Origin: a virus
Lineage: Duplodnaviria > Caudoviricetes
Length of the DNA: 25,238 bases
IMG/VR virus record: IMGVR_UViG_3300042566_000093
Span: 1 to 25,238 of that record
Direction: 5' to 3' (one strand)
In this document: piece by piece, positions 6,947 to 25,238 of the stretch
Numbering within the stretch: position 1 is the stretch's first letter
Layout of the letters: each line of letters begins with the position of its first letter
Translations under genes and position numbers: made by a program
Notes under the pieces: model-generated
Told to the model about the DNA's origin: nothing
Databases searched by the model: none
Seen by the model: the letters and a program-made list of their open reading frames with translations, nothing else

Positions 6947-7366
6947 ATGAAAATAATTCTACTAACCCCCGACCAAACAGTTCAACATTGGTCTGTTATC
7001 TCAGGATATCTGAGTAAAGTAATTGAGCATAGCCAAGGAGAATCATCACTTACAGACTATCTTAAGAAGATCCTCAATGAATATGTTCAATGTTGGGCGG
7101 TAGTAGATGATGGTTTAAATATTATTGGTGTTGGTCTCACTCAATACTTACAATACTCTCAACACAAAACACTTCACATCATTGCTTTTTCTGGTAGTGA
7201 CTTTGAAGAACAATCTAAGGTGTTCCCTACAGTGGAACAATTTGCCCGTGATTCTGGCTGTAAAGCTATTGAACAATGGGGTCGTCCAGGATGGGCAAAG
7301 GTACTACCAAAGTATGTATCTGGATTTAAAGAAGCTTACGTAGTAATGCGAAAGGATTTAGAATGA
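6947..7366 (+). CDS. GNAT-fold virion assembly protein (T7 gp13 / P22 gp14-like); ATG at 6947 preferred
   Basis: LHIIAFSG…EQFARDSGCKAIEQWGRPGWAKVL; typical position just before the ejection genes. Confidence 0.65.
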   Translation: MKIILLTPDQTVQHWSVISGYLSKVIEHSQGESSLTDYLKKILNEYVQCWAVVDDGLNIIGVGLTQYLQYSQHKTLHIIAFSGSDFEEQSKVFPTVEQFARDSGCKAIEQWGRPGWAKVLPKYVSGFKEAYVVMRKDLE

Positions 7367-8244
7367 AATATAAAATTAATGGTTCTATAAAAAGGAACTA
7401 CGGTGGTGGTGGAGGTACTAGTACAGTAAGTAGTATTCCTGATTGGGCGCAACCCTACCTACAAAATGTTGGTAATGCTGCTGAAGCTGGTTATAGGTCA
7501 GGTGATCTAGGCAAAGTAGCTGGTGCATCAAGACTTCAATCAGACGCTTTTGGTGGTGGCGCTAATCTTATTGGTGCAACAACTACAGGTGCTGCTGGTG
7601 CTTTGAGTGATCAATCAGGTCGCTTGGCTAACCTTGCTTCTACTGGTGTTGATACATCTGGCTCTGAAGCCTTGATTAGTAGTGCCACAGGCTCTATGGC
7701 TGACCAAGCTAAACGACTCACTGGTATGGCTATGGCTCCTAGTGCTGAGACTCTTGCGGCTCAAAAGTCAGGTATCTTACTTGACGCACAAAAGAAAGTC
7801 TCAGGATTGAATACTGGTTTTGGTCAAGCAGGTACATTAGGTTCTGCACGACAAGCTGTTATGCAAGGTGCTCAGAACGCTGAGACTACAGGTCAGCTTG
7901 CTAAGGTTGATGCTGAATATGAAAACAATATGTTTAGAAACCGACTTGCCGCTGAACAAGCTTTGGCAGGTACTCAGACAGGTACTCTTAATGCCGCTAC
8001 TAACTTGGCTAATCTTAGGTCAGGTGATGTTAGCACACGTCTTGCAGCTGAACAAGCTCTTCAGGGCGGTGCATCAGCAGGTGCTAACATTGTTAACACA
8101 GGTGTTGGTAATATTGCTAAACTTGGTGGTGAACAACGTGGTATTGATCAACAAGGTCTTGACGCAGGTTGGCAAGGTCTTCAGCGTTATGCTTCAACTA
8201 TCTATGGTAACCCTGCAAGACAACAAGCGACTGGAGGTAAATAA
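7363..8244 (+). CDS. Internal virion / DNA pilot (ejection) protein
   Basis: GGGGGTSTVSSIPDWAQPY start, A/G/Q-rich, GTLGSARQA motif, internal repeat RLAAEQAL x2. Confidence 0.6.
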   Translation: MKYKINGSIKRNYGGGGGTSTVSSIPDWAQPYLQNVGNAAEAGYRSGDLGKVAGASRLQSDAFGGGANLIGATTTGAAGALSDQSGRLANLASTGVDTSGSEALISSATGSMADQAKRLTGMAMAPSAETLAAQKSGILLDAQKKVSGLNTGFGQAGTLGSARQAVMQGAQNAETTGQLAKVDAEYENNMFRNRLAAEQALAGTQTGTLNAATNLANLRSGDVSTRLAAEQALQGGASAGANIVNTGVGNIAKLGGEQRGIDQQGLDAGWQGLQRYASTIYGNPARQQATGGK

Positions 8245-9242
8245 TGGCTGGATCACAAGGTATGCCAACTTCAGTGGCTCCTCAACAAGGACAACCACAA
8301 TCTACCCCCTCGGTGTTTAATATGGCAAATCAGCCAAGCGCTGATATGATGAGTCCTGCTGTTATGCCCACTCAACCCTCTATGGGCGGTGGTAAAGGTG
8401 CTGGACCAATGCAACCCCAAAAGACTGCTATGGGTACTCCTATTGTTTATGGTAATGTTTATTCTAATTCGAATCAACCATTTAATCCATCACCAAACTC
8501 ACCCTCAATAACTAATCCAACAGTAACTGAAAAACCATATGATGTACTTCAAGACCCAAGCTTTTATATGGCTGCTGACGGTACAACAAGTGTTCCTGGT
8601 TATGCTATGGGTACTACTGGTGTAGATGATCCATGGGATTGGTCTAATAAAGCCCCAGTAGCTCCATTAGCTGTGACTATTAAACCTTCTGAAGCAGTAA
8701 TACCACAAGTTGTTCCTGATCAAACAGAACAACAACTAGGTCAGATGGCTATGGGTATGGGTACTAATGCAGCCGCAAAGGGTATTGATGCCGCATACAA
8801 AGCTTATAATGCACCATTGACAACTCAAGCAGTAGGTTCTATGGGAACTACCGCTAGTGGCGCTCCAGTGGCATTAACTAACATAGGAGCTTTGTCTGCA
8901 CCTGCCGCATCTTCTATGCCAACAGCTATAGGCGCTATGTCAACCCCTATGAGTGGTGCTCTTCTTCCTGCTAGCGGTTTGGGAAGTGTCGCTGGTGCTG
9001 GAACAGGTATTGCCGCAGGATCTGCTGCACCTATTGGTGCTACTATTGGTTCAAGCCTAGGCACTGGTCTTGCAGCTGCTGAAGGTGCTACATTAGCTGG
9101 AGCTGGAACTGCAGCCGCTGGAACTGGTGCTGCTGGGCTCGGCAGTGCTTTAGGTGCTGGTGGTAGTGCTGCTTTGGCGGCTCTTGGCCCTGTGGGAGCT
9201 ACTATCGCAGCAGGGTTAGTTTTAAAGAAAATACTTGGATAA
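8244..9242 (+). CDS. Internal virion (ejection) protein with P/Q-rich N-terminus and A/G-rich hydrophobic C-terminus
   Basis: TAATG overlap, SD GGAGG; C-terminal GxxxG-rich membrane-insertion-like segment. Confidence 0.6.
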   Translation: MAGSQGMPTSVAPQQGQPQSTPSVFNMANQPSADMMSPAVMPTQPSMGGGKGAGPMQPQKTAMGTPIVYGNVYSNSNQPFNPSPNSPSITNPTVTEKPYDVLQDPSFYMAADGTTSVPGYAMGTTGVDDPWDWSNKAPVAPLAVTIKPSEAVIPQVVPDQTEQQLGQMAMGMGTNAAAKGIDAAYKAYNAPLTTQAVGSMGTTASGAPVALTNIGALSAPAASSMPTAIGAMSTPMSGALLPASGLGSVAGAGTGIAAGSAAPIGATIGSSLGTGLAAAEGATLAGAGTAAAGTGAAGLGSALGAGGSAALAALGPVGATIAAGLVLKKILG

Positions 9243-9251
9243 GGAAATACT

Positions 9252-11753
9252 ATGGCACCATTATCAGGTAAACAACATAGAGAGTACCTCAAGTTCCAAA
9301 ATAAAGAAGCTCGTGAAGCTTCTAAGATGGGACTTGACGAAATGCGTAAACAACAATTACATCAGATCAAACTCCAAGAAGCAGCCGCAAAAGCTAATCA
9401 AGGTTTAGGTCATAGACAACAAGTTAATAATGCTAGGCTTAAAGATATGGGTATTCCCTTACCTAAAGGTGCAAGTATTAACAAACAAAAATTAGGTATT
9501 CCTTCAACAAATCCTCTGGCTGGTACAGAGATGTTTAAGCAAGGACAACACAAGTTACCTCAATCTCCTATATTTAAAGCACAAGGCACTGATACAGTTC
9601 CTGCTATGCTTACTCCCGGAGAAGCTGTTATCCCAGCACCTGCCGCACAGAATCCTAAGAACAAAAAAGCTATTAAGCGTATGGTCCAAGAAGGTCGTAA
9701 GGCTAATAGGCTTCGTGACGGTGCTGTTAATATAGTTAATTCTGACGCACCAGCCCAAGCACGTTATCATGCAGACGGTACTAGTGATGTACCATCGTTA
9801 GCTTATCGTCATCCAGACGTACCCGGATCTTCATTTAATGACGGTACTGAGCGTGTGTTTAGCCGTGGTTCCGCTGATATGCAACATTATAATGATGGTA
9901 CATATGGTGTAGTGCCACAGCAAGTACAGTCTGCTGTTGGCTACCAATATGGTACTGTTGATGCAGACATTGATGAAGAAAGAAAACGTCAGGGTGTAGT
10001 ACCAATGGTTATTCAACCAGCTAGCACAGAGACAATCCCTATTTGGGATGAAAGAAGAGCCGAAGAAGGTGATCGGTTTGCTAATATGGTTGCTGTTGAT
10101 AACAGACCTATGCGGGATATTCCTATGGTTTCTGCAGTAACAACTCCTGTTATGGATCAAACACCATCTAATGCAGTTATAACATCGAAAGAAGTCCCAC
10201 CAGTAGTATTAGATACTTCGATTCCAATTAAATCAGTACCTGCTCCTAATGTTTCAGTTATTCCTGCAATTCCTGATAGGTTAAGAAAAGTTCCATTAGG
10301 ATCACCTGATTCAGATGTAGTTTCTGTTACTAATAATCCCACAGTTGTTACTAGCCCTCTCGCAGTTGCTCCAGATCAATTAAATAAAGAAGAATTAGCT
10401 GGTCTTGATGTGGTTAACACACAGAATACACCTGCAACAGTTACTTCGGCTGTACCTACTACTACTACTACTCCGACTGTACCTTCTAAGGTAGACCCTT
10501 ACGCTGGTATAGAGCCTACTCTCAGAAAAGATTTTGAGACAGACCCTGTTAAAGCAGCTAGAAAGATTCGTAGTGTATCTGAAATTGTTGAAGAGTTAGC
10601 TGGAAAACAAAAGACAGAAAAGTCTTTTACAGACTCGTTAGCTAACTTGTTTACTGCCAGTGGCTTTAAAGAAGAACTTGGTTTAAATAATCAAGATATT
10701 ATTCGTATGGCTATTTCTACTGCTGTTGGTGCTAAGAAGTTTGGTGTAAATCGTGCGCTTGCTTATGCAGGTAAACAGGCTTTTGAAGACTCTAACAAGC
10801 GAAATGCACAAGCACAAGCTGAAGCTAAAGCGATTCGTACAGCCGCTGTTCAAATTCGTGGTCAAGAAATTCGTGATGTTCGTAACGCAGAAGATGCTGC
10901 TGCTCGAGAACAACGTGATATAATTCGTGAAAATGCTCGTGCTGCACATGAAAGATTTAAAGCAGAGCAAGCAGTTCGTATGCAAGAGATCAAAGAGAGG
11001 TTTGAACGTGACAGGGATATTTTAAGGTATCAGCAGGATATGCAAAAAGAAGCAATGCGATTAACAGCCCAAGACAATCGTATGAATAAAATGTTTGGTT
11101 TCCAACAGGCTTTAATAGATTATAGAGAGGATAAGAAACAGAATTCTCCTAACGCTATAGTTGAACGTCTTTCCGCAAATATTCAGAAAGCATCTAGTGC
11201 TGTTGGAGAAATTTTAGATCGATCGTTTGGTGCTGATAACATCCAAGGTAAGGCTAACCCAAATAGGGAAGGTTTCCCAACTAAAACACAAGCAACTCAG
11301 CAAGTTGTATCTGCCCTTGCTAATGCGGGTTATGATATGTCTAACCCTGATGTGTATATGCAAGCCACATCAGTTATTAACTCGGGAATTGAAAAAGCAA
11401 TTGCAGATAAAAAGTCTGGTAGAGTAGATATTCCTAACGTTACTCCTTATATAATGAGTAGCATAATGCAACAACGTTTAAAGATTCCATCTGAATTACT
11501 TAATGTTGGTAAAGATAATAAACCAATGCCAGCTGAAAAGTTAACGTCTTTGTTTAAAGAAGTTAGATCTTTAGCTTTAGACCCAGAGACAGGTAAAGTT
11601 AACACAACAAAAGAAGCTGAAATTGCAAATGGTATTTTTGCTGAATGGAATGGTCCTAACGGTAAAAAGCATCGTGCACAATTTAAAGGTACAGAGAACG
11701 AATCAGCCTTTGCACAATTTATGCAAGCAAGTTTAACTAAACTTAAACAGTAA
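9252..11753 (+). CDS. Internal virion (ejection) protein
   Basis: SD AAGGA; GTDTVPAMLTPGEAVIP motif, P/V/T-rich linker, long charged coiled coil. Confidence 0.6.
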   Translation: MAPLSGKQHREYLKFQNKEAREASKMGLDEMRKQQLHQIKLQEAAAKANQGLGHRQQVNNARLKDMGIPLPKGASINKQKLGIPSTNPLAGTEMFKQGQHKLPQSPIFKAQGTDTVPAMLTPGEAVIPAPAAQNPKNKKAIKRMVQEGRKANRLRDGAVNIVNSDAPAQARYHADGTSDVPSLAYRHPDVPGSSFNDGTERVFSRGSADMQHYNDGTYGVVPQQVQSAVGYQYGTVDADIDEERKRQGVVPMVIQPASTETIPIWDERRAEEGDRFANMVAVDNRPMRDIPMVSAVTTPVMDQTPSNAVITSKEVPPVVLDTSIPIKSVPAPNVSVIPAIPDRLRKVPLGSPDSDVVSVTNNPTVVTSPLAVAPDQLNKEELAGLDVVNTQNTPATVTSAVPTTTTTPTVPSKVDPYAGIEPTLRKDFETDPVKAARKIRSVSEIVEELAGKQKTEKSFTDSLANLFTASGFKEELGLNNQDIIRMAISTAVGAKKFGVNRALAYAGKQAFEDSNKRNAQAQAEAKAIRTAAVQIRGQEIRDVRNAEDAAAREQRDIIRENARAAHERFKAEQAVRMQEIKERFERDRDILRYQQDMQKEAMRLTAQDNRMNKMFGFQQALIDYREDKKQNSPNAIVERLSANIQKASSAVGEILDRSFGADNIQGKANPNREGFPTKTQATQQVVSALANAGYDMSNPDVYMQATSVINSGIEKAIADKKSGRVDIPNVTPYIMSSIMQQRLKIPSELLNVGKDNKPMPAEKLTSLFKEVRSLALDPETGKVNTTKEAEIANGIFAEWNGPNGKKHRAQFKGTENESAFAQFMQASLTKLKQ

Positions 11754-11767
11754 ATAAAGGAAAATAA

Positions 11768-14700
11768 ATGGATGGATATTTAGACAACCTAAGAAAGATA
11801 ATATCAAGGAAATCAGATTTACCAGGAGGTATCTCATTAACGGATGCTGATACCGTGGTAACCCCTTCGGGGGAATCCATCCGTCTTCAAGGCATTAGTG
11901 CAAGAGAGACTGCTAAACTTCCTGATGATTTAAGTAAAAGTAAAGGCGCTCAAGCGGGTGCCTATACCCAAAGTAGATTGATGGAAGACGTTATTCGTGA
12001 GGGTAACTTTACTACACCAGTACTTACACAAGATAAATCTTATAAACGTACTCTTGGTGATTTAGTAGACCCTAGTGGAAGACGTCTTACTAACAAAGCA
12101 TTAGAAATGGGTATTGTTGATCCAACAGCCGATACAACTAGAGATCAATACAACTCTATGTACATGGGTAATCTTGACCGTGCTCAACGTAGAGTAGATA
12201 AGCAACCTACAATAGCTGACAGTTTACTTTTTGAGCTTAACAAAGAGCGTAACCCTAATGGGTTTATGATGTCTAAGCTTCAAACAGATACTGCTGGTAT
12301 GTATGGTCAAGCAAAAGAACAAGGTCTTGACGAGTATTTTTCTGGTCCATCTATTATCAGAAAAGGTGAAGATCGGTATGGTAAAGCTATTTCTAATTTA
12401 AGCAGTGGTTGGGATCAAGGTAAACTTCAAGCCGCTAAAAGCGTGTATGGTATGTTTGATCTTATTGCGGATAAAACAGGTAGCGAATCATTTAAAAACT
12501 TTGCACAATCAGGTATTAATGAAAATACCTCTTTGTTAAGAGACATACCTGAATTAAGAAGTGCAGAGGCATTTAATGATAAAGGTGAGTGGAAATTAGA
12601 TACACTAGGTAAGTTCTTTGATTGGACTGTAGGTAGTGCAGCTGCTTCTGCTCCTCAAATGTTGACTAGTATTGTTGCTGTTATGGCTTCACCAGCAACC
12701 TATGGTGCTTCTTTATCAATTCCATTTAGTATGTACACAGGTCAGGTATACAACGATCAGAAGAATAAGAATGCAACTGCCGCTGTTGCTGCTGGTTTTA
12801 CTATGACAGTGCTTGATAAGTTATCATTGCCATTTATTCTTGGTAAAGGTAAAGACATTACTAAACAGGCTACTCAAGATTTAGTATTGAGAGAGCTACA
12901 AAAGACAATGACTAAAGAAGCGGCTGAAGAGTTGCTACGTAAGTCTATGACTGAGTCTGTTAAGGAAGTTAGTACTGCTTTCAAAACAATTTCTGGTGGT
13001 ACGCTTAATAAGATAAAAGGTATTGGAGGAGCTACTGCTTCTGGTGCTTTGGTTGAGAGTGGTGTAGAAACACTACAAGAATTAGCTGGTTATTTTGGTG
13101 AGCAAGGTAGTTTTGATTTACCTTCTTCACCAGAAGAAATGACAAAGCTAAAATCTAGATTGGCAAATGCGGCTGTTGGTGGTGCTGTATTAGGTGGTGG
13201 ATTGTCTGGTGGTCTTAAGACTTATTCAGTATTAACTGCACCAAGCGATGTTGTTCCTAGATCATCAACTGATGTTGAGTTTAGAGAAAAATATATTAAT
13301 GATATTAATGAACAACGTGTAGCTTCAGGAGATACTCCTATTGTTACAATGCCTTCTACTACAGACGTTATTGATAAGACATTAGAATTACAAGAGAAAA
13401 ATCCTATTGAAACATCGTTAAATGCTTTAGCTTCTGCTGAGACTGCTAAAAGACAGACTGAAGGTGTTTATGCTAAAACAATGTCTGCTATAAAAGATAA
13501 AGGTATTAGTGGTTTATTTGGTAAATTTTCTAACATTATAACTAGTGATACTAAACATAAGAGCATTTACTCAGCTACATTATCTACATTGTTAGGTAGT
13601 TCTACTGCTGTTAATGGGGCTTCTATTGAAAACCACCAAGCTATTTTAGAGTCAAACATCTTTAAAAACTTTGGTAACATTGAAAATTTTATTTCTGCTT
13701 TTGGTGGTGTATCTGCTACAGAAGCTTCTCGTATTATATCTAACCCTACTGTTGTTAATGCAATATCAGAGTTAGCTCGTATTAAAAGAGATTTATTTGC
13801 TACTTCTACCAGAGATATCGCTGATAAGATGGATATTGATTACGGTAACTTTGGTAATTTTAAAGATTCTATTATTGATTATGCTGATAGAATAAGTAAT
13901 TTAACTAAAGCATACAATCAAGCTACAGGTAAAGATTTGTCTGTTAGACAATTCTTAGAGTTTAAACCATTAGATAAAACAATTGTGTCAAAGAACTCTG
14001 GTCAGTTTGTCAGAGACTTACAACAACACTTAGGTATGAACTATGCAGATGCAACTGAATTAACTAATGCAATACTAGATAACAAACAAGTTAATAGTTT
14101 TGAGGATTCACTTGATGAATTGCTTAATGGTAATGCAGAAAAGATTAAAGATAAGCAAGGGTTAGAAGCTAAACTAGCTCAACCCGGAGTCAAAAGTTTC
14201 TTTAATCAGTATATGTCTCATAACATTATAGATAACGCTTATTCATTAGCCGCATCGGGTGCTGCTTTTAATACTAATAAAGAGTTAATTGGTAAAGATG
14301 GTTCTAAGCTTGCCGCATTAGTTCAGCAAATGAAAGACAATGGTGACATTGATGATGTACAAGCTAGTTTTATAGCTAAAGAAATTCAAGATGTGTTAGC
14401 AATGCGTAATGGTGAATTCAAAGCCATTACTAATCCTTATTTAAAAGGTGCATTGAACACTCTTAATTTCTTATCTACTATTACTGCACTACCATTAGCC
14501 GCTGTTAGTTCTACAGTAGAGTTTGCTCAGATATATCGTAACCTAAATAGACCACAAGCCGCTAAAGCTACATTGGCTTTACTTAAAAGTACAGGCAGTG
14601 AAATAGGTGCTTTGTACAGAGAGATTGGTAACAAGCTTACTGATAGAGTTCTTATTAAAAATGCTAAGATTAGAACAGACTTGTCTGAAGCAGGATACCT

Positions 14701-15571
14701 AAGAGAAGGTGGTGTTGGTCATCGTAATGACATTCTAACGTCATATTATTCTAAATGGACTGACGGGTTCTTTAAGTTAACTGGTTTAACTTCTGTAACA
14801 GCTATTACCCGTAATGCTCGATTAGCTATTGCAGCTGATGCTATACAAAATTGGTTGAATGTTGTTTCTGAAGGTACAGGTACTGAACAAGAAATAGCAG
14901 ATGCTAAAGACCATTTAAGACGTATTAACGTTGACTATGAATACATGATGGCTATTAATGCTGATACTAAATCTACAGAAAAATATGTTATAAACAATTT
15001 ACAACAGGCTACATATAACTTTGTTAATGAAGCAGTTATTATACCTACTATTCTTAATAGACCTAAGTTTTATAGTGATCCTTATCTAAAACTGTTTACT
15101 CAATTTACGGGTTATACATCAGCATTCACAGCAAATATTCTCCCAAGATTAGTAACTGATATCCGTAAGTCAGGATCAGATGATCAAAAGAATACTGCAG
15201 CTGTTATTGCTATGATGCTTGCTTTGGCTATGCTTTCTTTGTATATTAAAGATATGATTAAGTATGGTGAACATCCACCTGAGTGGGTCAAAGAAAATAA
15301 AGAGTTTTTAAGAGTTATTAATGCAATGGGTATCTTAGGTTCAGGACAACGGATCTTTGATCAGATATTCCCATTGATAGAAGACAACAGAAAGAAATCT
15401 ATCACAGATAAGATTGCCGAACAATCCGCACAGCTCTCATACATCAAGAAGGTTGAAAGAGCTTTAGAGGCACCAGAAGGTAAACGGATTGAACAGGGTG
15501 CGAAGCTGCTTCCCATAGTTGGAACAAGTCCCGCTTTCGCTAAATACTTACAGAAAGAGCTAGGAGAATAA
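11768..15571 (+). CDS. Large internal virion protein with an N-terminal thermonuclease (SNase)-like domain
   Basis: SD AAGGA; DADT / IRLQGISARET / DKSYKRTLG motifs; Gly/Ala-rich hydrophobic helices; size and position of a T7 gp16-like ejection protein. Confidence 0.6.
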   Translation: MDGYLDNLRKIISRKSDLPGGISLTDADTVVTPSGESIRLQGISARETAKLPDDLSKSKGAQAGAYTQSRLMEDVIREGNFTTPVLTQDKSYKRTLGDLVDPSGRRLTNKALEMGIVDPTADTTRDQYNSMYMGNLDRAQRRVDKQPTIADSLLFELNKERNPNGFMMSKLQTDTAGMYGQAKEQGLDEYFSGPSIIRKGEDRYGKAISNLSSGWDQGKLQAAKSVYGMFDLIADKTGSESFKNFAQSGINENTSLLRDIPELRSAEAFNDKGEWKLDTLGKFFDWTVGSAAASAPQMLTSIVAVMASPATYGASLSIPFSMYTGQVYNDQKNKNATAAVAAGFTMTVLDKLSLPFILGKGKDITKQATQDLVLRELQKTMTKEAAEELLRKSMTESVKEVSTAFKTISGGTLNKIKGIGGATASGALVESGVETLQELAGYFGEQGSFDLPSSPEEMTKLKSRLANAAVGGAVLGGGLSGGLKTYSVLTAPSDVVPRSSTDVEFREKYINDINEQRVASGDTPIVTMPSTTDVIDKTLELQEKNPIETSLNALASAETAKRQTEGVYAKTMSAIKDKGISGLFGKFSNIITSDTKHKSIYSATLSTLLGSSTAVNGASIENHQAILESNIFKNFGNIENFISAFGGVSATEASRIISNPTVVNAISELARIKRDLFATSTRDIADKMDIDYGNFGNFKDSIIDYADRISNLTKAYNQATGKDLSVRQFLEFKPLDKTIVSKNSGQFVRDLQQHLGMNYADATELTNAILDNKQVNSFEDSLDELLNGNAEKIKDKQGLEAKLAQPGVKSFFNQYMSHNIIDNAYSLAASGAAFNTNKELIGKDGSKLAALVQQMKDNGDIDDVQASFIAKEIQDVLAMRNGEFKAITNPYLKGALNTLNFLSTITALPLAAVSSTVEFAQIYRNLNRPQAAKATLALLKSTGSEIGALYREIGNKLTDRVLIKNAKIRTDLSEAGYLREGGVGHRNDILTSYYSKWTDGFFKLTGLTSVTAITRNARLAIAADAIQNWLNVVSEGTGTEQEIADAKDHLRRINVDYEYMMAINADTKSTEKYVINNLQQATYNFVNEAVIIPTILNRPKFYSDPYLKLFTQFTGYTSAFTANILPRLVTDIRKSGSDDQKNTAAVIAMMLALAMLSLYIKDMIKYGEHPPEWVKENKEFLRVINAMGILGSGQRIFDQIFPLIEDNRKKSITDKIAEQSAQLSYIKKVERALEAPEGKRIEQGAKLLPIVGTSPAFAKYLQKELGE

Positions 15572-18500
15572 ATGGCAGTTAATATTAACACAAGCAAAAA
15601 CGTACCTACAATACCACGTATTGCAGATGATTTGCTTCAACAACAGATCAACGAAGCTAATGCTCGTATGGCGGCTCAACCCCCTCGGCAAGAAGCAATA
15701 CCTAACCCTTCAGCAATCTTTGGTGAAGAGGAAGAGTTTGTTCTTCCATATAAAAAGTCTCCATATGTTATTCCAAGAAGACTTTCTGGTCTACCTCCTG
15801 ATGCAAAGTTACTTGCAGGTACAGATGTTCGTATGCCTTCAGAACAAGAGGCTATACCTACGGACCAAGAGATTATACCTACAGAGCAATTATCTGAGGA
15901 TGTCCAACCTGAAATGATAGAAGAAACACCACAAGAAGATGGTGGGTTTGGTATGGATAGCTTTGCTATTGAAAGTACTGATCAAGACTATTACAGTAAA
16001 CTTCAAGAAGAACGTAACAGGCAAATGGAAGTAAGGAAAATCCTTGATCCTTCTCGTTTTGAAAATGAAAATGATATCAGAACTGCTTACGGTGAAGGGG
16101 CAGTTAAAGCTACAGAAGCAGGTGCTATTATTCGTACTGCTATGAATATTACTAATGGTCTTAATGATCTTGATGTAGGCTTATATAAAGAGGGTACAAC
16201 ATCTAATGCACAGCTTAACGGTCTTACTTATCTTAAACAGGGTACTGGATTAGATACTAAACAGATTGGTAATGCCGCTACTACTTCTTTTATTTTGTAT
16301 GCTCCTATGTTATCAGGTGCAGCATCTCAAAAAGACGGTGAGATCATGTCTGCTGAGGACAATGCTGATATTGATAGCTTAGACCAACTGATAATGGATG
16401 ACGGTGATGGTGCCTTAGATAAGGTAGCCGTTAATGGTGGTCTTAAACGTGACATGGTCCAAAAGGGTTTAGGTCGTTTGTTTAAAAAGCTTTCAAAAAG
16501 TGTCGGTGATACTTATTGGGGTAATACAGAACGTATTAATCAAAACATTTCTAATGAGGCTGCTGGTGCAACCATTGTTCAAGCTTTAGTTGATAAGGGT
16601 TATTTGGTTGAAGATGTTAACCCAGATGGTGTTGAGATTCTTAGACTAAGTCCAGGCTTAGGTGCTGACTTAAGATACAAGAGTAAAGGTATGCAACGTA
16701 GTGTTACTGGTGCATTGTCAGGTAAAGCTCAAAAGGCTCCTCCTACTGAAACAGGTGCTTATCAAGGTGCATTACAAGATGTCCGTGAAATGGATAAAAA
16801 GAAACAAGAGTACACTGTTACACAACAAATGGCTGAAGCCAAAGGTGCTGTAGCTAAAGTACCACTCTTTATTTCACCCGTTAAAGCTTACTTTGCAGCT
16901 CTGTTTAATGAAGCTATTCTTGGTCATGTTAAAAACCCAATGAACCCAGCACAATTAGATGTTATGGGATTGTTAAAGGTATCCGAAGAAGATATTCAAG
17001 ATGCTTCTGCTAATGGAAACAAAACATCTGCAGAAATTATTGATCAAAAAGTAAGCAATCTTCAAACTGAATTAGGTGACATGGCAGCACACGTAGCCTA
17101 TGGTGGTCCACAGTTCTCTACTTATTGGGAAGACTATGCTACCCATCGTATGTATCAAGATGCAACTGACTTTAACCCACAACGTAATAAGTGGACTCGT
17201 GCATTAACTGTAGGTAAGTCTTCTCCTATTATGCTTAATAGTAACTTCCATAATACAGGTGTTAACAAAGCAACTGCTGAAGGATTCTTTAGCAGGATTG
17301 CAGGTAAAGCTCGAAATGGTAATTTTACTTTGTCAGCAGATGAAAAAGAATTAAGTTTCCTTACAACACTTGGTCGTGTACTTGATTCAAGTAGGTCTGT
17401 TGGTATGTCATCTGAATCTATATTGTTGCCTGACCTGTTACAAACAGTAACACCAATGTTTATTGCTGAAGCAGCTGCAAAAGGTAGATTGTTACGTAGT
17501 ATTGTACCTAATAACACTCGTGAAGTTGTTAATGCTCTTGGTAAACCAGAAGGTCTTATTGATAAGCTTACTCCTGCTCAGAAAGGTGCTTTAGATAACT
17601 TCCTTAAAGAAGCAGATAGAGACGACTGGGGTTATAAGCTTCAGGCGTATCTTGATGCAGCTAACTATTTAGATGCAAAAATGAATGGTACACCTTTCAC
17701 ACCACGAGTTACTGTAGCTCTTGATATGAACTCTGCTGGTCGTTCGTTCTTAGCCGCTGACGTTGGTAACATGGATATCTTAAGTCGTGTTGGATTAATA
17801 TGGGATAAGTTTGTTGATAGAGTAGACGATTTCTTTACTGATACATTACCTAATGAAAAGGGTGATCCACGATACTACTTTACAACTGTAGCTTTAGATA
17901 CAGGTATCTCTGCTGCTTTTGGTGATGCTAAACAAGAGAAGATTGATAAATTTAAAATGTTGCTTGCTAAATATGGTGGTGCAGGAGTTGCTGGTAATAA
18001 GCAGTTCAACAAAGACTTTTCAAAGAAAGTCTTGATGACCACTGACTATGGTAAGCCAGCTAACTTTCACATTGCAGAAGCTAAAGCCTTTTTAAAGAGT
18101 CACCCTGAATTTAGAGATGAAGCAGTAAAGTTTTATAATGGTGATGTAGATGCTTTAGCCAAAGACATCAATGAGATTTATAAAGCAACTTTAAAACAAA
18201 CAACAGACGCTTGGCAGTATGTGTTGCCTAAGAAGATGGTTAAGTTCTTACAGATGTTTGGTCGAGTACCTAAACCAATTGGTTACTACAATGAAAACAT
18301 TTCTATTGGTAGATTTGGTACTGAGCCTACAGGTAATATTGTTCAAATCAAAGGTGCAGAAGGTAAACGCAGACGTATTATGGAGACTATGAGGATGTTT
18401 GATCCTTTAGCTCCTGCTAAGGCTAAAGGTTTAAGGCTAGACGATGGTTCATTGTTCATACCTGAAGAAGGTTCTGGAGCAGTTAACCAAGTTGGTCCTA

Positions 18501-19123
18501 CATTCGGTCAATATCGTGAGTCAATTATTGTTGCTGAGACAGCAAGGTTACTTAATGGTAATAAAACACCAGCGAATTCTAACTTTATTATTCCTGTATT
18601 TGATAACTTTATTGTTGACTCTATGAGCTACCCATTTGTTCATTACGTAGCTAATAATATTGTAGCCCCTAATGTGTTTAGTTGGAATATGGCTAAGGGT
18701 TTTTCTCTTGATTTCCGTAAACAACTTAGAGAAGCTTTACCTGAGATGATGAGTTCTAATGAGATTATTGTTGGTCCAGGATCACCTTACAAAGGTATCT
18801 TTACTACTATTGATCGTGAATATAAGTGGTTAAAAGATAAACAGCCTAATGAATTAGCAGAATATCAAAAGACTTTAAAGCAATTTCTTGAAAGTAAATC
18901 TTCTGGTTATATACCTCCAGGTCCTAATAGACCCGAGTCTACACGTTTAACATCTCAACAAGCAAGAGCTTTAGTAAAAGCTATTAGTGATTTTTATAAC
19001 TTTAATGATAAGCTCCAAGGCGTTGATGCTTGGGATAATTTAAAATATAAAGGTATGCGTGATTCATTCTTAAAAGAACTTGTATCACGAGGTAAAAAAG
19101 GATTAATTTACTTCTTTACTTGA
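15572..19123 (+). CDS. Divergent single-subunit (T7/N4-type) DNA-directed RNA polymerase, putatively virion-encapsidated
   Basis: DYATHRMY…FNPQ; motif A ALDMNSAG (D718); motif B KDFSKKVLMTTDYG (K818, Y826); GPTFGQYRE; motif C PVFDNF (D1011); C-terminal YFFT. Confidence 0.8.
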   Translation: MAVNINTSKNVPTIPRIADDLLQQQINEANARMAAQPPRQEAIPNPSAIFGEEEEFVLPYKKSPYVIPRRLSGLPPDAKLLAGTDVRMPSEQEAIPTDQEIIPTEQLSEDVQPEMIEETPQEDGGFGMDSFAIESTDQDYYSKLQEERNRQMEVRKILDPSRFENENDIRTAYGEGAVKATEAGAIIRTAMNITNGLNDLDVGLYKEGTTSNAQLNGLTYLKQGTGLDTKQIGNAATTSFILYAPMLSGAASQKDGEIMSAEDNADIDSLDQLIMDDGDGALDKVAVNGGLKRDMVQKGLGRLFKKLSKSVGDTYWGNTERINQNISNEAAGATIVQALVDKGYLVEDVNPDGVEILRLSPGLGADLRYKSKGMQRSVTGALSGKAQKAPPTETGAYQGALQDVREMDKKKQEYTVTQQMAEAKGAVAKVPLFISPVKAYFAALFNEAILGHVKNPMNPAQLDVMGLLKVSEEDIQDASANGNKTSAEIIDQKVSNLQTELGDMAAHVAYGGPQFSTYWEDYATHRMYQDATDFNPQRNKWTRALTVGKSSPIMLNSNFHNTGVNKATAEGFFSRIAGKARNGNFTLSADEKELSFLTTLGRVLDSSRSVGMSSESILLPDLLQTVTPMFIAEAAAKGRLLRSIVPNNTREVVNALGKPEGLIDKLTPAQKGALDNFLKEADRDDWGYKLQAYLDAANYLDAKMNGTPFTPRVTVALDMNSAGRSFLAADVGNMDILSRVGLIWDKFVDRVDDFFTDTLPNEKGDPRYYFTTVALDTGISAAFGDAKQEKIDKFKMLLAKYGGAGVAGNKQFNKDFSKKVLMTTDYGKPANFHIAEAKAFLKSHPEFRDEAVKFYNGDVDALAKDINEIYKATLKQTTDAWQYVLPKKMVKFLQMFGRVPKPIGYYNENISIGRFGTEPTGNIVQIKGAEGKRRRIMETMRMFDPLAPAKAKGLRLDDGSLFIPEEGSGAVNQVGPTFGQYRESIIVAETARLLNGNKTPANSNFIIPVFDNFIVDSMSYPFVHYVANNIVAPNVFSWNMAKGFSLDFRKQLREALPEMMSSNEIIVGPGSPYKGIFTTIDREYKWLKDKQPNELAEYQKTLKQFLESKSSGYIPPGPNRPESTRLTSQQARALVKAISDFYNFNDKLQGVDAWDNLKYKGMRDSFLKELVSRGKKGLIYFFT

Positions 19124-19124
19124 C

Positions 19125-19178
19125 AAATAAAAAACCCCTACTAGGATAATTCCTAATAGGGGTTATTTTTTTTTTTTT
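19125..19178. terminator. Bidirectional intrinsic terminator between the convergent arms
   Basis: Stem aacccctactagga / tcctaataggggtt (one mismatch), loop taat, A-tract on the left and 13-T tract on the right. Confidence 0.9.
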
Positions 19179-19458
19179 ATTTCAATAGTTGATTATACAT
19201 GTCTAATGCTTGCTTACGATTATTACTAGCAAGCTCTTGAGCTTCTGTCTTGGTGTAAGGCATACCCGTTTTATCGTTAAGAACATCAGTTAAACCTGTT
19301 GAACTTTGTTTATATACTTCATTAATTACATAAGGACCAAGGTCTTTAGTATAAAGAACATTGTCAGGAATATTAATACCTACATCCCGCATATCAATTT
19401 GGAAGTCATGGTCATCATAATCATGACCTCTTAAGGCTTGTACGTTATAACTTTTCAT
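19177..19458 (-). CDS. Hypothetical protein
   Basis: Start overlaps the Dps stop; ends at the terminator. Confidence 0.7.
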   Translation of the reverse strand: MKSYNVQALRGHDYDDHDFQIDMRDVGINIPDNVLYTKDLGPYVINEVYKQSSTGLTDVLNDKTGMPYTKTEAQELASNNRKQALDMYNQLLK

Positions 19459-19931
19459 TTAAAACTCTTTCCAAGTGTTGCTTTGACTTTCCAGTTAAGC
19501 TTGGACAAGTCTTTAATATAGTCACCAACAAGTGTAGCTAAGCCACCATAGCATTGTATATCAGCTTCATCATACAGTTTTTGAGCATGATCAACTAAAT
19601 CATCAAAGTCTTGATTTAGCCATGTAAACATTTCTTTACTTGGCTTTCTAGCATTATCACACTCTGCAATATCAGTCATACTAAGAACTTCTTTAAGAGA
19701 GCATGGTACTCCCTTGTCCATCTGACGGATCTGTTCACCAAGCATATCATGTTGTGCCCACAAGAAGTCATAGATCTCTTCTAAAAGAGCATGATCTTGA
19801 GCAAACATAGGGCCTTCCACATTGAAGTGATACCCATGAGACTTGTAGTATGTCACAAAGTTATCAGCATAAAGCTGTGTAAGCATTGTAATCAAATTAT
19901 TACTTTTGGGTTGAGGTGGTGTCATTGCCAT
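19455..19931 (-). CDS. dps: Dps / ferritin-like protein
   Basis: HGYHFNVEGPMFAQDHALLEEIY…DMLGEQIRQ matches the Dps ferroxidase pattern (HWNVxG..F..LH..FE..Y…D..AERI). Confidence 0.85.
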   Translation of the reverse strand: MAMTPPQPKSNNLITMLTQLYADNFVTYYKSHGYHFNVEGPMFAQDHALLEEIYDFLWAQHDMLGEQIRQMDKGVPCSLKEVLSMTDIAECDNARKPSKEMFTWLNQDFDDLVDHAQKLYDEADIQCYGGLATLVGDYIKDLSKLNWKVKATLGKSFK

Positions 19932-20752: not shown

Positions 20753-20826
20753 GGTTGCGGGGAAGGGAGTCGCACCCCTGACCTATGGATTATGAGTCCA
20801 TCGCTCTTCTACTGAGCTACCCCGCT
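20753..20826 (-). tRNA. tRNA with CAT anticodon (Met, fMet or Ile2; identity ambiguous)
   Basis: AGCGGGG TA GCTC AGTAGAA GAGC G ATGGA CTCATAA TCCAT AGGTC AGGGG TGCGACT CCCTT CCCCGCA A CC folds as a cloverleaf. Confidence 0.85.
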
Positions 20827-20830
20827 TTAT

Positions 20831-20844
20831 CTATTAGGTACCTG
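20831..20844 (-). promoter_or_regulatory. Candidate phage RNAP promoter CAGGTACCTAATAG
   Basis: Overlaps the end of the thioredoxin gene and ends 4 nt before the tRNA 5' end; same motif as 2871 and 23644. Confidence 0.5.
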
Positions 20845-21088
20845 CTAAGAAAGGTCTTACCTTATTAGCGTCAAAACCTACTGATGTACGTAATACCTGA
20901 TCATTACTATCTACAATAATCATTGTAGGCACTGAACGAATACCGTAGTATGATACTGAATCTTTATTATCTTCGATAGGCATATTAATTAATTCAATCT
21001 CAGGGTATTCAGGTAAAGCTTCTTTAAGAACTTTGTCTAGTTGCTTACATGGTTGGCACCATGCTGCAGAGAATTTAAGTAGTTTCAT
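20834..21088 (-). CDS. trxA: Thioredoxin
   Basis: FSAAWCQPCK active site; IRSVPT cis-Pro motif. Confidence 0.92.
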   Translation of the reverse strand: MKLLKFSAAWCQPCKQLDKVLKEALPEYPEIELINMPIEDNKDSVSYYGIRSVPTMIIVDSNDQVLRTSVGFDANKVRPFLAGT

Positions 21089-21366
21089 TAGTTACCTTTA
21101 AACAGTTCTTCTTTAAGCAGATATCCTTCAAGAGACCAGAGCTGGTCAATAGCATTTTCAAACGAATACTTTTCTCCAAGGGCTTGGTTGTACCTTGACT
21201 TATCCACACAGGCACTTGTGCCAATGACTACGTAACCGTTCTTCATGAACACTTGGCAGATAGTTGTTGTGGTTTCTGGTAGCAGAGTATACACTGACTT
21301 CTCAATCTTAGACATGATATGGTCAATAGTTACTGATGTACGTGGTTTTTCTTTGGTATCGTTCAT
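21088..21366 (-). CDS. N4 Gp49 / Sf6 gp66 family protein (possible cyclic-nucleotide sponge)
   Basis: TICQVFMKNGYVVIGTSACVD…YNQALGEKYS..NAIDQLWSLEGYLL is the family signature. Confidence 0.8.
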   Translation of the reverse strand: MNDTKEKPRTSVTIDHIMSKIEKSVYTLLPETTTTICQVFMKNGYVVIGTSACVDKSRYNQALGEKYSFENAIDQLWSLEGYLLKEELFKGN

Positions 21367-21737
21367 TGTTTACTTTCTAAATATTTAACTGCCTTGTTTA
21401 AACCTTCAAGAGTATCCCCAAAAATACCAAGACCTTTGTTACATTGACCACAGAGAATACCTCTTATTTTACCTGTAATATGATCATGGTCTACTACAGC
21501 ACTTTGTTTAGTTGCTTTGCCATCTAATTCTACTGGTGTATTACAAATAGCACAGCAACCATCTTGATCTTCAATAAGCCTATCTCTTTCTGGAGAAGTA
21601 ATATTGTATTTAGATCTTAGGTGTCTGCAGGTATTACATTCTTTGTAGCGAGCACTATATTCTTTTCCTGTTCTATTAGGGTTATTAATAGAATAAGCTG
21701 TAGTTTCGTTATGACATCCTATATTTTTGCATTTCAT
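21363..21737 (-). CDS. Endonuclease VII-like His-Me endonuclease (possible free-standing homing endonuclease)
   Basis: QDGCCAIC…VVDHDHITGKIRGILCGQCNKGLG; additional N-terminal Cys pairs. Confidence 0.88.
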   Translation of the reverse strand: MKCKNIGCHNETTAYSINNPNRTGKEYSARYKECNTCRHLRSKYNITSPERDRLIEDQDGCCAICNTPVELDGKATKQSAVVDHDHITGKIRGILCGQCNKGLGIFGDTLEGLNKAVKYLESKQ

Positions 21738-23615: not shown

Positions 23616-23643
23616 GAGTTCCTTGTTGTTAATTGTTGTCTGG

Positions 23644-23656
23644 TATTAGGTACCGA
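23644..23656 (-). promoter_or_regulatory. Candidate phage RNAP promoter TCGGTACCTAATA upstream of nrdJ
   Basis: Intergenic; 12/13 identical to the copy at 2871-2883. Confidence 0.55.
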
Positions 23657-23663
23657 CTCACTG

Positions 23664-23707: not shown

Positions 23708-25237
23708 TCAGCAAAAGAAATACTCCGAATTAGTTACTTCAGAAAGGTTTAAGCTACCTAGTTCTGGTTGGTTAAAAGTAAAAGTATCCTTATTATTCAT
23801 AAGAGTATCCTGTATGATATCAAAGAAGTTTTCTACATCATACTGTGCAATGAAGGTCATCTTAGTTACTTCTTGAAGGAAATCAACTTCATCCGCATGT
23901 GTACTAAAGCTATCATGGACTGCTCCAAAAGAGCCGTTAAAGCTGACGATAGTATTTGCCATGTGAGCAGCATCATATGAGTGAACAACGTTAGGGCTGA
24001 TACCAGAAGCAAAGGAACGTCTGCAAGGAACACGTTCACCAGTTTCTTTGTTGAGTACGTCAACTTTAATAACGTGCATGACTCGTCCGTCTTTATTTCC
24101 TTGGATACCTTTGATAGTTCCTCTTTGTTTCCGTTCATGCTGTAAGTAAGCCTTGTATACCACTGGGAACCCTGATGGGGTTGTCCACGAAAGTTGATTT
24201 CTTCCTGAGTTAAGTTCATGTTCTGCAATCTTCTGTAAATACTTGGTTGTCTTAAGTGGTCCTGCACAGACGGTGTTAATAGCCTTGATTAGGTTACCTG
24301 CTAATATATCACACTCATTTTCAGTAATGTTATATTTAACAGTATAACCTTCTACGTGACAGTCATCGTACATATTCTTTGCGATACGAAGTTTACCTGC
24401 ACTATAAGCACGAGTCATTGAGCCTCGTTTAGCTATACCCTTACGAATATGTTTCATAGGCATATCTTTAGCTTCAAAGTACTCAGGCATAATGTTGATA
24501 AGTTCTTTGGCTACTGCTACGTAAAAGTCTTTTTGGATAGGTGTAGGAACAAGTGATACTAGTGTACCAGCTTGTTTGTCCTTAGACATAGCCGCTAAGT
24601 GTTGCCAACCGTTATTACTACCATCGATAGGTATAGGTAGACCAGACATAAAGGGTTTACCCTCCATGACAGATCTTTTATATCCTAACAGCTCATTACA
24701 ACAGGCTAAGAAGCTGTAGGCTTTCTCAGCGTCAGGATGAATATGTTTAGTACGGGCAGTCTGGTAGATAAACTCTATGTTGTTATCTACCCATGCAACT
24801 CGATCTTCCAATGTCATCTTATCTACAGATATAGTGTCAAGACCTTCTTCAGTTAAGTAAGCCTTGTAGTCTGTGGTAAAGTAGCTTGGGATGTTACCAA
24901 TAATAAATGATTTATTAAAGCAAGCTGCTGTATGTACCTTGATCCAGAATAAACCACGTTCAGTAACCTTCTTCTTATTAGCAAACAAGAACAGGCTACG
25001 AGCCAAGTCACTACCTTGGAACTCTAAGAATGATTCTGCATAGTACACTCGACCACGGTAGTCACAAGAGACTTCCTGATAGAATGTTCTGTTGCCAATC
25101 ATCTCAGCCTTCTTAAGTACCTGAGTGTACTCAAAGTACTTACTCATCATACGCTGTAGCTTGGGATCTTTCTTACCAAGGAATTTAGTCTTGTCTGTAT
25201 GGAACAAGTTCTTAGGTAAGTCTAGGTTTTCATGGTG
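23708..25237 (-). CDS. T7-like single-subunit DNA-directed RNA polymerase (N-terminus beyond the window)
   Basis: CDYRGRVY, PIDGSNNGWQH, KRGSMTRAY, ISPNVVHSYDA, VHDSF, C-terminal SEYFFC; frame stays open to the window edge. Confidence 0.95.
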   Translation of the reverse strand, partial: HHENLDLPKNLFHTDKTKFLGKKDPKLQRMMSKYFEYTQVLKKAEMIGNRTFYQEVSCDYRGRVYYAESFLEFQGSDLARSLFLFANKKKVTERGLFWIKVHTAACFNKSFIIGNIPSYFTTDYKAYLTEEGLDTISVDKMTLEDRVAWVDNNIEFIYQTARTKHIHPDAEKAYSFLACCNELLGYKRSVMEGKPFMSGLPIPIDGSNNGWQHLAAMSKDKQAGTLVSLVPTPIQKDFYVAVAKELINIMPEYFEAKDMPMKHIRKGIAKRGSMTRAYSAGKLRIAKNMYDDCHVEGYTVKYNITENECDILAGNLIKAINTVCAGPLKTTKYLQKIAEHELNSGRNQLSWTTPSGFPVVYKAYLQHERKQRGTIKGIQGNKDGRVMHVIKVDVLNKETGERVPCRRSFASGISPNVVHSYDAAHMANTIVSFNGSFGAVHDSFSTHADEVDFLQEVTKMTFIAQYDVENFFDIIQDTLMNNKDTFTFNQPELGSLNLSEVTNSEYFFC

Positions 25238-25238
25238 A

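Follow-up and report, generated by a model that had tools for sequence, protein, structure and literature searches.

Locus and gene layout

In this study, we describe an open reading frame (ORF) of 1183 amino acids (aa) at positions 15572-19123 (plus strand) of IMG/VR virus record IMGVR_UViG_3300042566_000093, a Caudoviricetes stretch of 25,238 nucleotides (nt) that was analysed at its full length and is called the window here. The ORF appears to encode a divergent single-subunit RNA polymerase (RNAP) without cysteine, a candidate for a compact virion RNAP (vRNAP). The window represents 25 kb of a podophage genome: lysis, tail and ejection genes lead up to this ORF on the plus strand, and the minus strand holds the genes for a T7-type RNAP, nrdJ, thioredoxin, tRNA-Met and a Dps-like protein. 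Near-complete relatives (n = 5) have genomes of 59-64 kb, and the six sequencing runs with at least half of the candidate gene's words are all lake-water metagenomes, three of which may be where this DNA comes from. The gene sits directly after the ejection genes as the last of the virion operon; AGGAG stands 5' of it and its start adjoins the stop of the gene for a 1267-aa protein. A two-way hairpin terminator with flanking A-run and T-run (19133-19164) lies where the two arms converge. The T7-type RNAP of the minus strand (23708-25238; PF00940, E 1.5e-56) is present as its C-terminal 509 aa, with 9 Cys, and measures 733 aa in relatives.

The sequence-only reading of this ORF had recognised the motifs of T7 RNAP in their correct order, and this was borne out: the frame is open for 1183 aa, the residues and positions named were all correct (among them E520 at 17129, L545 at 17204, D718, K818, Y826 and D1011), and DX2GR, A, B and C follow one another with the catalytic D, K, Y and D. 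Alignment to T7 and N4 places R526, K540 and R543 in a DX2GR-like block (17129-17206). Motif A (17723-17740) holds D718, equivalent to T7 D537 and N4 D559; motif B (18011-18052) holds K814, K818, Y826 and G827, equivalent to T7 R627, K631, Y639 and G640; and motif C (18596-18607) holds F1010-D1011, equivalent to N4 F950-D951 and T7 H811-D812. The spacings D718-K818 (100 aa) and Y826-D1011 (185 aa) are as had been counted, the T7 values of 94 and 173 agree with D537, K631, Y639 and D812 in the fetched sequence, and FD in the N4 motif C, as given in that reading, matches F950-D951 of the fetched record. The likening of the terminal YFFT to the FAFA foot of T7 RNAP was not supported, as the alignment puts T7 residue 880 at about residue 1073 and the candidate extends about 110 aa past the aligned T7 end. 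The first 150 residues (15572-16021) form a poorly conserved, Glu/Pro/Gln-rich segment that might serve as a linker or a packaging signal.

Relationship to single-subunit RNA polymerases

Profiles were compared by HHalign. Profile A3 (122 sequences) aligned with a profile of the N4 mini-vRNAP (11 sequences) at 97.9% (E 3.3e-13) over 704 columns and with a T7-type profile (8 sequences) at 90.4% (E 1.4e-6), and profile A2, built from 18 close relatives alone, gave 85.1% against N4 and 1.3% against the T7-type profile, whereas no control, whether a reversed profile or the profile of DNA polymerase A, reached 1%. The better match to N4 is suggestive only, because the template profiles differ in depth. 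A comparison of profiles A4 and A5 was set aside, as nine rows common to both inflate it. In the profile alignment R526, D718, K814, K818, Y826 and D1011 fall on N4 R424, D559, R666, K670, Y678 and D951 and on T7 R425, D537, R627, K631, Y639 and D812. Moreover, K540 and R543 align to N4 K437 and R440, which hold the initiating nucleotide (PMC4496689; statements attributed here to papers cited by PMC number refer to the extracts available of them). The same five catalytic columns also coincide in a MAFFT alignment made separately (44 sequences). In a tree, the family (25 rows, support 95 by the Shimodaira-Hasegawa-like approximate likelihood ratio test), the N4 vRNAPs (11 rows, 100) and the T7-type enzymes (8 rows, 99) form three groups; the tree is unrooted and has long branches, and whether the family is the sister group of N4 vRNAP cannot be read from it.

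On these grounds the candidate is almost certainly a homologue of the DNA-dependent RNA polymerases of the T7/N4 superfamily. That the motifs match by chance, or that a family A DNA polymerase is encoded here, would be in line with the lack of a direct database match, but such readings have a vanishingly small likelihood in view of the collinear profile alignments of 600-700 columns to both RNAP families, the score below 1% of the DNA polymerase A profile and the separate DNA polymerase A gene in related genomes.

Homologue family and catalytic residues

A word search retrieved 27 related proteins with identity down to 35%. Profile A2 (18 loci) retrieved 161 representatives of clusters at 50% identity at E <=0.001, of which 150 were listed, and a second homologue search with profile A1 found 7 close proteins only. 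From the 172 proteins gathered, 132 of 1000-1450 aa were kept and 40, mostly fragments, were dropped; the full-length set contains close copies. Throughout this set R526, D718 and D1011 are invariant (132/132), Y826 is Y and R543 is R in 131 each, and the K818 column holds K in 121 and R in 11. Distant members, at 17-25% identity, have near-canonical motifs such as DGxxNG, KxPxMxxxYG and HDA. This family-wide invariance of catalytic residues puts the motif matches beyond chance.

Individual members also reach known families. PF00940 matched 3 of 40 scanned relatives, one of them (P0088) above the cut-off; in another scan set of 40, with six proteins in common with the first, phrog_2206 (N4 virion RNAP) matched nine (best E 1.9e-12) and the T7-type PHROG eight, and in the five proteins matched by both the virion family scored better. 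Among the Atlas feature neighbours of the candidate is PF00940 at 0.95. Against the window's own T7-type RNAP, the candidate gave no significant BLASTP match (best E 0.18). The ratio of nonsynonymous to synonymous substitution rates is 0.08-0.11 for aa 501-1060 in all four pairs compared, against 0.15-0.37 for residues 1-160. Parts of the gene are also represented, at >=88% likeness, in contigs of three RNA libraries (two studies), in which strand, level and DNA carry-over are not distinguishable.

Judged from sequence, the proposal of a divergent single-subunit RNAP has good support: the profiles show homology, the catalytic residues are invariant and selection is purifying. The polymerase is very likely active. 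It could instead be a catalytically dead relic, reused as a structural ejection protein, as the extreme divergence (17-25% identity to distant members) and the non-canonical residues next to the motifs would allow. However, R526 and the two metal-binding aspartates do not vary in any of the 132 members despite that divergence and selection is strongest over the catalytic core, and we regard a dead relic as highly improbable. The idea of a stand-alone form also fits the family: its 132 members measure 1010-1438 aa, HExxH occurs in 0/132, and a longer fused form was not found in a search that was weak for this purpose.

Cysteine exclusion, synteny and packaging

Five consecutive genes of the window, for proteins of 293, 332, 833, 1267 and 1183 aa, encode no Cys in 3908 aa, whereas the window's other 14 proteins have 51 in 3576 aa (1.4%). 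The first is a DNA ejection protein (7363-8244, plus; weak match to phrog_4287, E 4e-4), the next two are putative ejection proteins by Cys count and position (8244-9242 and 9252-11753, plus), and the 1267-aa large virion/ejection protein (11768-15571, plus; phrog_6958, E 4.5e-19) is the candidate's constant upstream neighbour. Within the candidate family there are 22 Cys in 160,793 aa and none at all in 116 of the 132 members; counted over the fetched loci, Cys makes up 3 of 65,454 aa in the candidate (0.005%) and 593 of 30,960 aa in the T7-type partner (1.9%). N4-type vRNAPs are reported to contain 0.00075% cysteine, against 0.865% in their proteomes, and suppression of cysteine is described as conserved in the N4-type ejection operon (PMC11445570).

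Gene order is equally constant. Where the upstream flank is present, the candidate follows the 1267-aa homologue, in 21/21 such near loci (of 26) and in 27/27 such distant loci (of 33). The opposite strand carries a T7-type RNAP in 18/26 near and 33/33 distant stretches; several of the loci counted are near-copies. As for the remaining near loci, seven contigs stop short and L021 has its T7-type RNAP beyond an assembly break. At one near locus, L018, the outer flanks are 90-97% identical to the window, whereas the candidate is 37% and the 1267-aa protein 49% identical, and the block was therefore apparently exchanged.

The sequence-only reading had further held that the enzyme is packaged and injected, which operon position and cysteine exclusion support indirectly; on the same basis, ejection of the candidate with the DNA is quite probable. 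A polymerase that is active but not packaged, serving late transcription, packaging or replication priming, would also fit a place at the operon end, as would any late product, and the protein has no transmembrane segment. It is nevertheless an improbable alternative: cysteine exclusion is family-wide as against 1.9% Cys in the partner RNAPs, linkage to the large ejection protein is constant, L018 swapped both genes together while its flanks are still 90-97% identical, and the T7-type enzyme already has its promoter motif on the late arm.

The 1267-aa protein has features of its own. Its aa 1-140 (11768-12190, plus) form a thermonuclease (SNase)-like domain (PDB profile, E 2.7e-5; Atlas lead 0.89), in which D26, D28, R39, E47 and R94 are invariant in 29 homologues, and it is possible that this ejection protein is an injected nuclease. 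Its reading as a detached N- or C-terminal domain (NTD or CTD) of the N4 vRNAP was not supported (8.8% and 0.3%, respectively), in a weak test with single-sequence templates. HExxH was found in 0/5 block proteins of the window. The segment apparently exchanged at L018 (2820-13994, against 9252-19931 of the window) takes in the large ejection genes, the polymerase, a 93-aa gene and Dps.

Promoters, genome ends and early transcription

A promoter motif with the consensus AGTCGGTACCTAATAG is mostly intergenic and faces the direction of transcription on both arms, with 6-12 copies per near relative at <=3 mismatches and 3 copies in the window against 0.16 expected. In the window, such candidate phage-type promoters head the tail/ejection operon (2869-2884, plus) and stand 5' of nrdJ (23643-23658, minus) and of tRNA-Met (20831-20846, minus). 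The motif is near-identical in G001, G004 and G005, relatives with a likeness of 79-82% between their T7-type RNAPs and of 38-43% between their candidates; because it is constant where the T7-type RNAPs are alike but the candidates have diverged, the T7-type enzyme probably acts on it. In seven genomes, 2.2-4.3 kb separate the terminase start from the first rightward copy of the motif. The contig does not reach the left end of the window's own genome, and scans of left ends used relatives.

We consider it likely that the candidate is an ejected, catalytically intact RNAP that transcribes the leading genome end. Encoded at the end of the virion operon, it would be synthesised late, enter the head along with the four cysteine-free proteins encoded before it, and be ejected through the envelope together with the DNA. 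By analogy with N4, it would then transcribe the first-entering end of the ~60-kb genome in the cytoplasm, helping DNA uptake, and hand over to the T7-type RNAP, the gene of which lies ~18 kb from that end and which would act at its own 16-bp promoters. Unlike in N4, membrane and channel jobs would be left to separate neighbours. Early transcription by the injected enzyme, as the sequence-only reading had it, is the least firm of these steps and is assigned to the candidate with fair confidence, by analogy.

Several observations weigh against this explanation. The candidate protein alone had no match in Pfam, PHROG, PDB, GenBank phages or NCBIfam; single-sequence N4 or T7 templates reached 0.3-12% against A2-A4; and in profile searches of PDB the best matches of A3 were mitochondrial RNAPs at E 0.064-0.34 only, with no polymerase match for A1, A2 and A5. 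The candidate's subclade departs from the motifs, with DMNSAG for DGxxxG, Q980 at the position of T7 H784, and H for the glycine of DX2GR, which is G or S in distant members. With regard to packaging, the scaffold-position protein, the holin and the 93-aa protein are likewise without Cys, and gp36 of the cultured Roseobacter phage CRP-7 has four. With regard to transcription, no N4-type hairpin promoter (3-nt GNA template loop) was conserved among 9 family left ends, in a scan that recovers N4 P1 and P2 as a control. Finally, Bonnellvirus smaasur has one annotated RNAP, the gene of which is equally far in; a T7-type RNAP gene in a distal place therefore does not imply a virion enzyme.

The main rival accepts an ejected and active enzyme and leaves the early mRNAs to host RNAP, the candidate being a DNA-pulling motor or a maker of primers or short genome-end RNAs. 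No cognate promoter was found for the candidate (first copies of seven genomes; 9 left ends), scattered sigma-70-like sites occur in 4/9 left ends at 10/12 matches, the N4-type RNAP domain has been proposed as an ejection motor (PMC11445570), and the tandem hairpins before the first genes could be RNA elements. No strong sigma-70 site was seen 5' of the first genes in G001, G002 and G004-G006, which would speak against host RNAP, but none was seen in the smaasur control either; moreover, in N4 motor and early transcription are not exclusive. We hold host transcription of the early genes to be unlikely, and prefer early transcription by the ejected candidate.

The predicted left ends have a peculiar composition, being strongly adenine-poor on the coding strand in 11/11 genomes (weakest in G003), unlike N4 and T7, with a run of 224 nt without A in CRP-7. 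As evidence for a virion RNAP this trait was rejected, because smaasur, with its one annotated RNAP, also has an adenine-poor left end (6 per 200 nt). The almost A-free stretches of the coding strand measure 200-700 nt (G001-G006, G008-G010, G015 and MK613349:57330-57990). In G010 and CRP-7 the stretch encodes an A-avoiding version of an early protein of ~100 aa, and the annotated gp72 of CRP-7 lies on the strand opposite to it. One guess at the origin of these ends is that restriction sites which depend on adenine are avoided; a search for literature on adenine-free genome ends found nothing relevant. Just before the adenine-poor stretch, G001-G006, G008-G010 and G015 share a conserved element with a C-run at its end, which may mark the physical genome end.

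Tandem hairpins with varying stems and a constant GGTAAGTA loop stand 5' of the first early genes (G001:5606-5670; G002:42579-42645; G003:56604-56670 and 57050-57115; G005:34875-34945). Rfam gave no match near the gathering score on the G001 left end, and the element is a candidate for an RNA element or a promoter.

Comparison with known systems and a cultured carrier

The closest known system is the N4 gp50 mini-vRNAP (residues 998-2103; Schitoviridae), which is the best profile match and has a similar core size and FD in motif C. The two also have in common the K437/R440 equivalents, the lack of Cys, a second, non-virion RNAP as partner, and a position that closes the ejection block, in convergent orientation to the replication arm. 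However, the N4 vRNAP has ~3500 aa, with an NTD and a HExxH-bearing CTD, whereas the candidate family is stand-alone at ~1200 aa, is a separate clade in the unrooted tree and, unlike N4, has no conserved GNA-loop hairpin promoter at the 9 left ends. Its partner is a one-chain T7-type RNAP of 733 aa, that of N4 a heterodimeric RNAPII, and the cysteine-free genes number five here against three in N4. Relatives have one T7-type RNAP of 705-774 aa beside the candidate gene, and the three-RNAP set of Schitoviridae (with the gp15/gp16 RNAPII) was not found among them. The T7-type RNAPs (PF00940) have DX2GR, A, B and C in order and at similar spacing, but are a weaker profile match, are cysteine-rich, are not virion proteins and end ~110 aa earlier.

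In the literature consulted, as far as available, single-subunit virion RNAPs are Schitoviridae proteins of 2800-3800 aa. Schitoviridae are defined by a ~3500-aa vRNAP (PMC7650795) with the three domains NTD, RNAP and CTD (PMC13434306), N4-like RNAPs are described as carrying a fused peptidase (HExxH) domain in all or nearly all cases (PMC5512222), and one survey removed matches <2500 aa (PMC10654107). On size, domain make-up and promoter, as read from the sequence, the candidate is not a Schitoviridae vRNAP. The split vRNAP of Alteromonas phage AltAD45-P1 (PMC3821669) and StenR_269's putative vRNAP (PMC10747016) are likewise not one chain of 3500 aa and are cysteine-free large virion proteins, but the AD45 pieces of 1404 and 2481 aa still sum to an N4-type protein, and for StenR_269 the grounds of the call are size, helicity and the lack of cysteine (PMC10747016). 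Neither phage was matched by tblastn of P0001 (the window protein), P0088, P0143 and CRP-7 gp33, and they are otherwise set apart by their descriptions. No description of a stand-alone virion RNAP was met in the literature searched, in the extracts available; subscription journals were outside this search and an earlier mention is possible.

The family has a carrier in culture. Roseobacter phage CRP-7 (MK613349) encodes gp33 (QBQ72826.1), a protein of 1235 aa with 0 Cys, annotated 'hypothetical protein', which profile A3 finds at E 6.6e-70 (database size 1e6) with both aspartates aligned and which P0001 itself and profiles A2, A4 and A5 missed. Six window proteins match CRP-7 gp30, 34, 36, 37, 38 and 43, in order. 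Among GenBank phages, both P0088 (a distant member) and the 1267-aa protein match CRP-7 only, and CRP-7 is the top GenBank match for the T7-type RNAP and for a relative's terminase; its own terminase is 60% identical to that of G001. By shared gene order and core genes the window phage belongs to the CRP-7-type group: the order is the same, with the T7-type RNAP as gp30 and gp33 in the candidate's place, although CRP-7 is marine and distant, has R for K in motif B of gp33 and has a different promoter motif. In the part available, the CRP-7 description names ORF30 alone as RNAP (PMC6918029), and in the available part of PMC12629253 CRP-701 was the only match. Since gp33 belongs to a cultured phage, packaging, activity and promoter type are directly testable.

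More tentatively, and with the odds somewhat against it as a whole, we suggest that aquatic podophages of a large, unclassified group have an unfused virion RNAP of ~1200 aa beside a thermonuclease-like ejection protein, swapped with it between strains as a unit and starting at a non-N4 promoter on an almost adenine-free leading end. If true, this would add a third major lineage to the phage single-subunit RNAPs and offer a model of the state preceding the giant fusion of N4. A free form of ~1200 aa (161 clusters at 50% identity) would untie polymerase injection from the N4-type fusion and separate two questions about N4, how a polymerase is packaged and refolded and what role the extra domains have. 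The family may also be an extensive and as yet unmined source of orthogonal single-subunit RNAPs.

Neighbouring genes and further observations

Next to the polymerase gene, a 93-aa cysteine-free protein with no family match (19177-19458, minus) is kept; its gene is on the opposite strand in near loci and on the polymerase's strand in several distant loci. It is followed by the Dps/ferritin-like gene (19455-19931, minus; PF00210, E 4e-10), which is kept in near relatives. The tRNA-Met gene (20753-20826, minus) comes immediately after a copy of the phage promoter motif. Between nrdJ and thioredoxin lie N4 gp49-like and endonuclease VII-family genes (21088-21737, minus), one or both of which are missing from most relatives. 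At L012, L013, L015 and L016, two genes (~325 and 665-685 aa) stand in the place of nrdJ and probably encode a class I ribonucleotide reductase. Within the early arm of relatives, a conserved 127-aa gene with no family match lies on the opposite strand and has its own promoter copy (G001:7988-8371 and G003:59850-60239, both minus).

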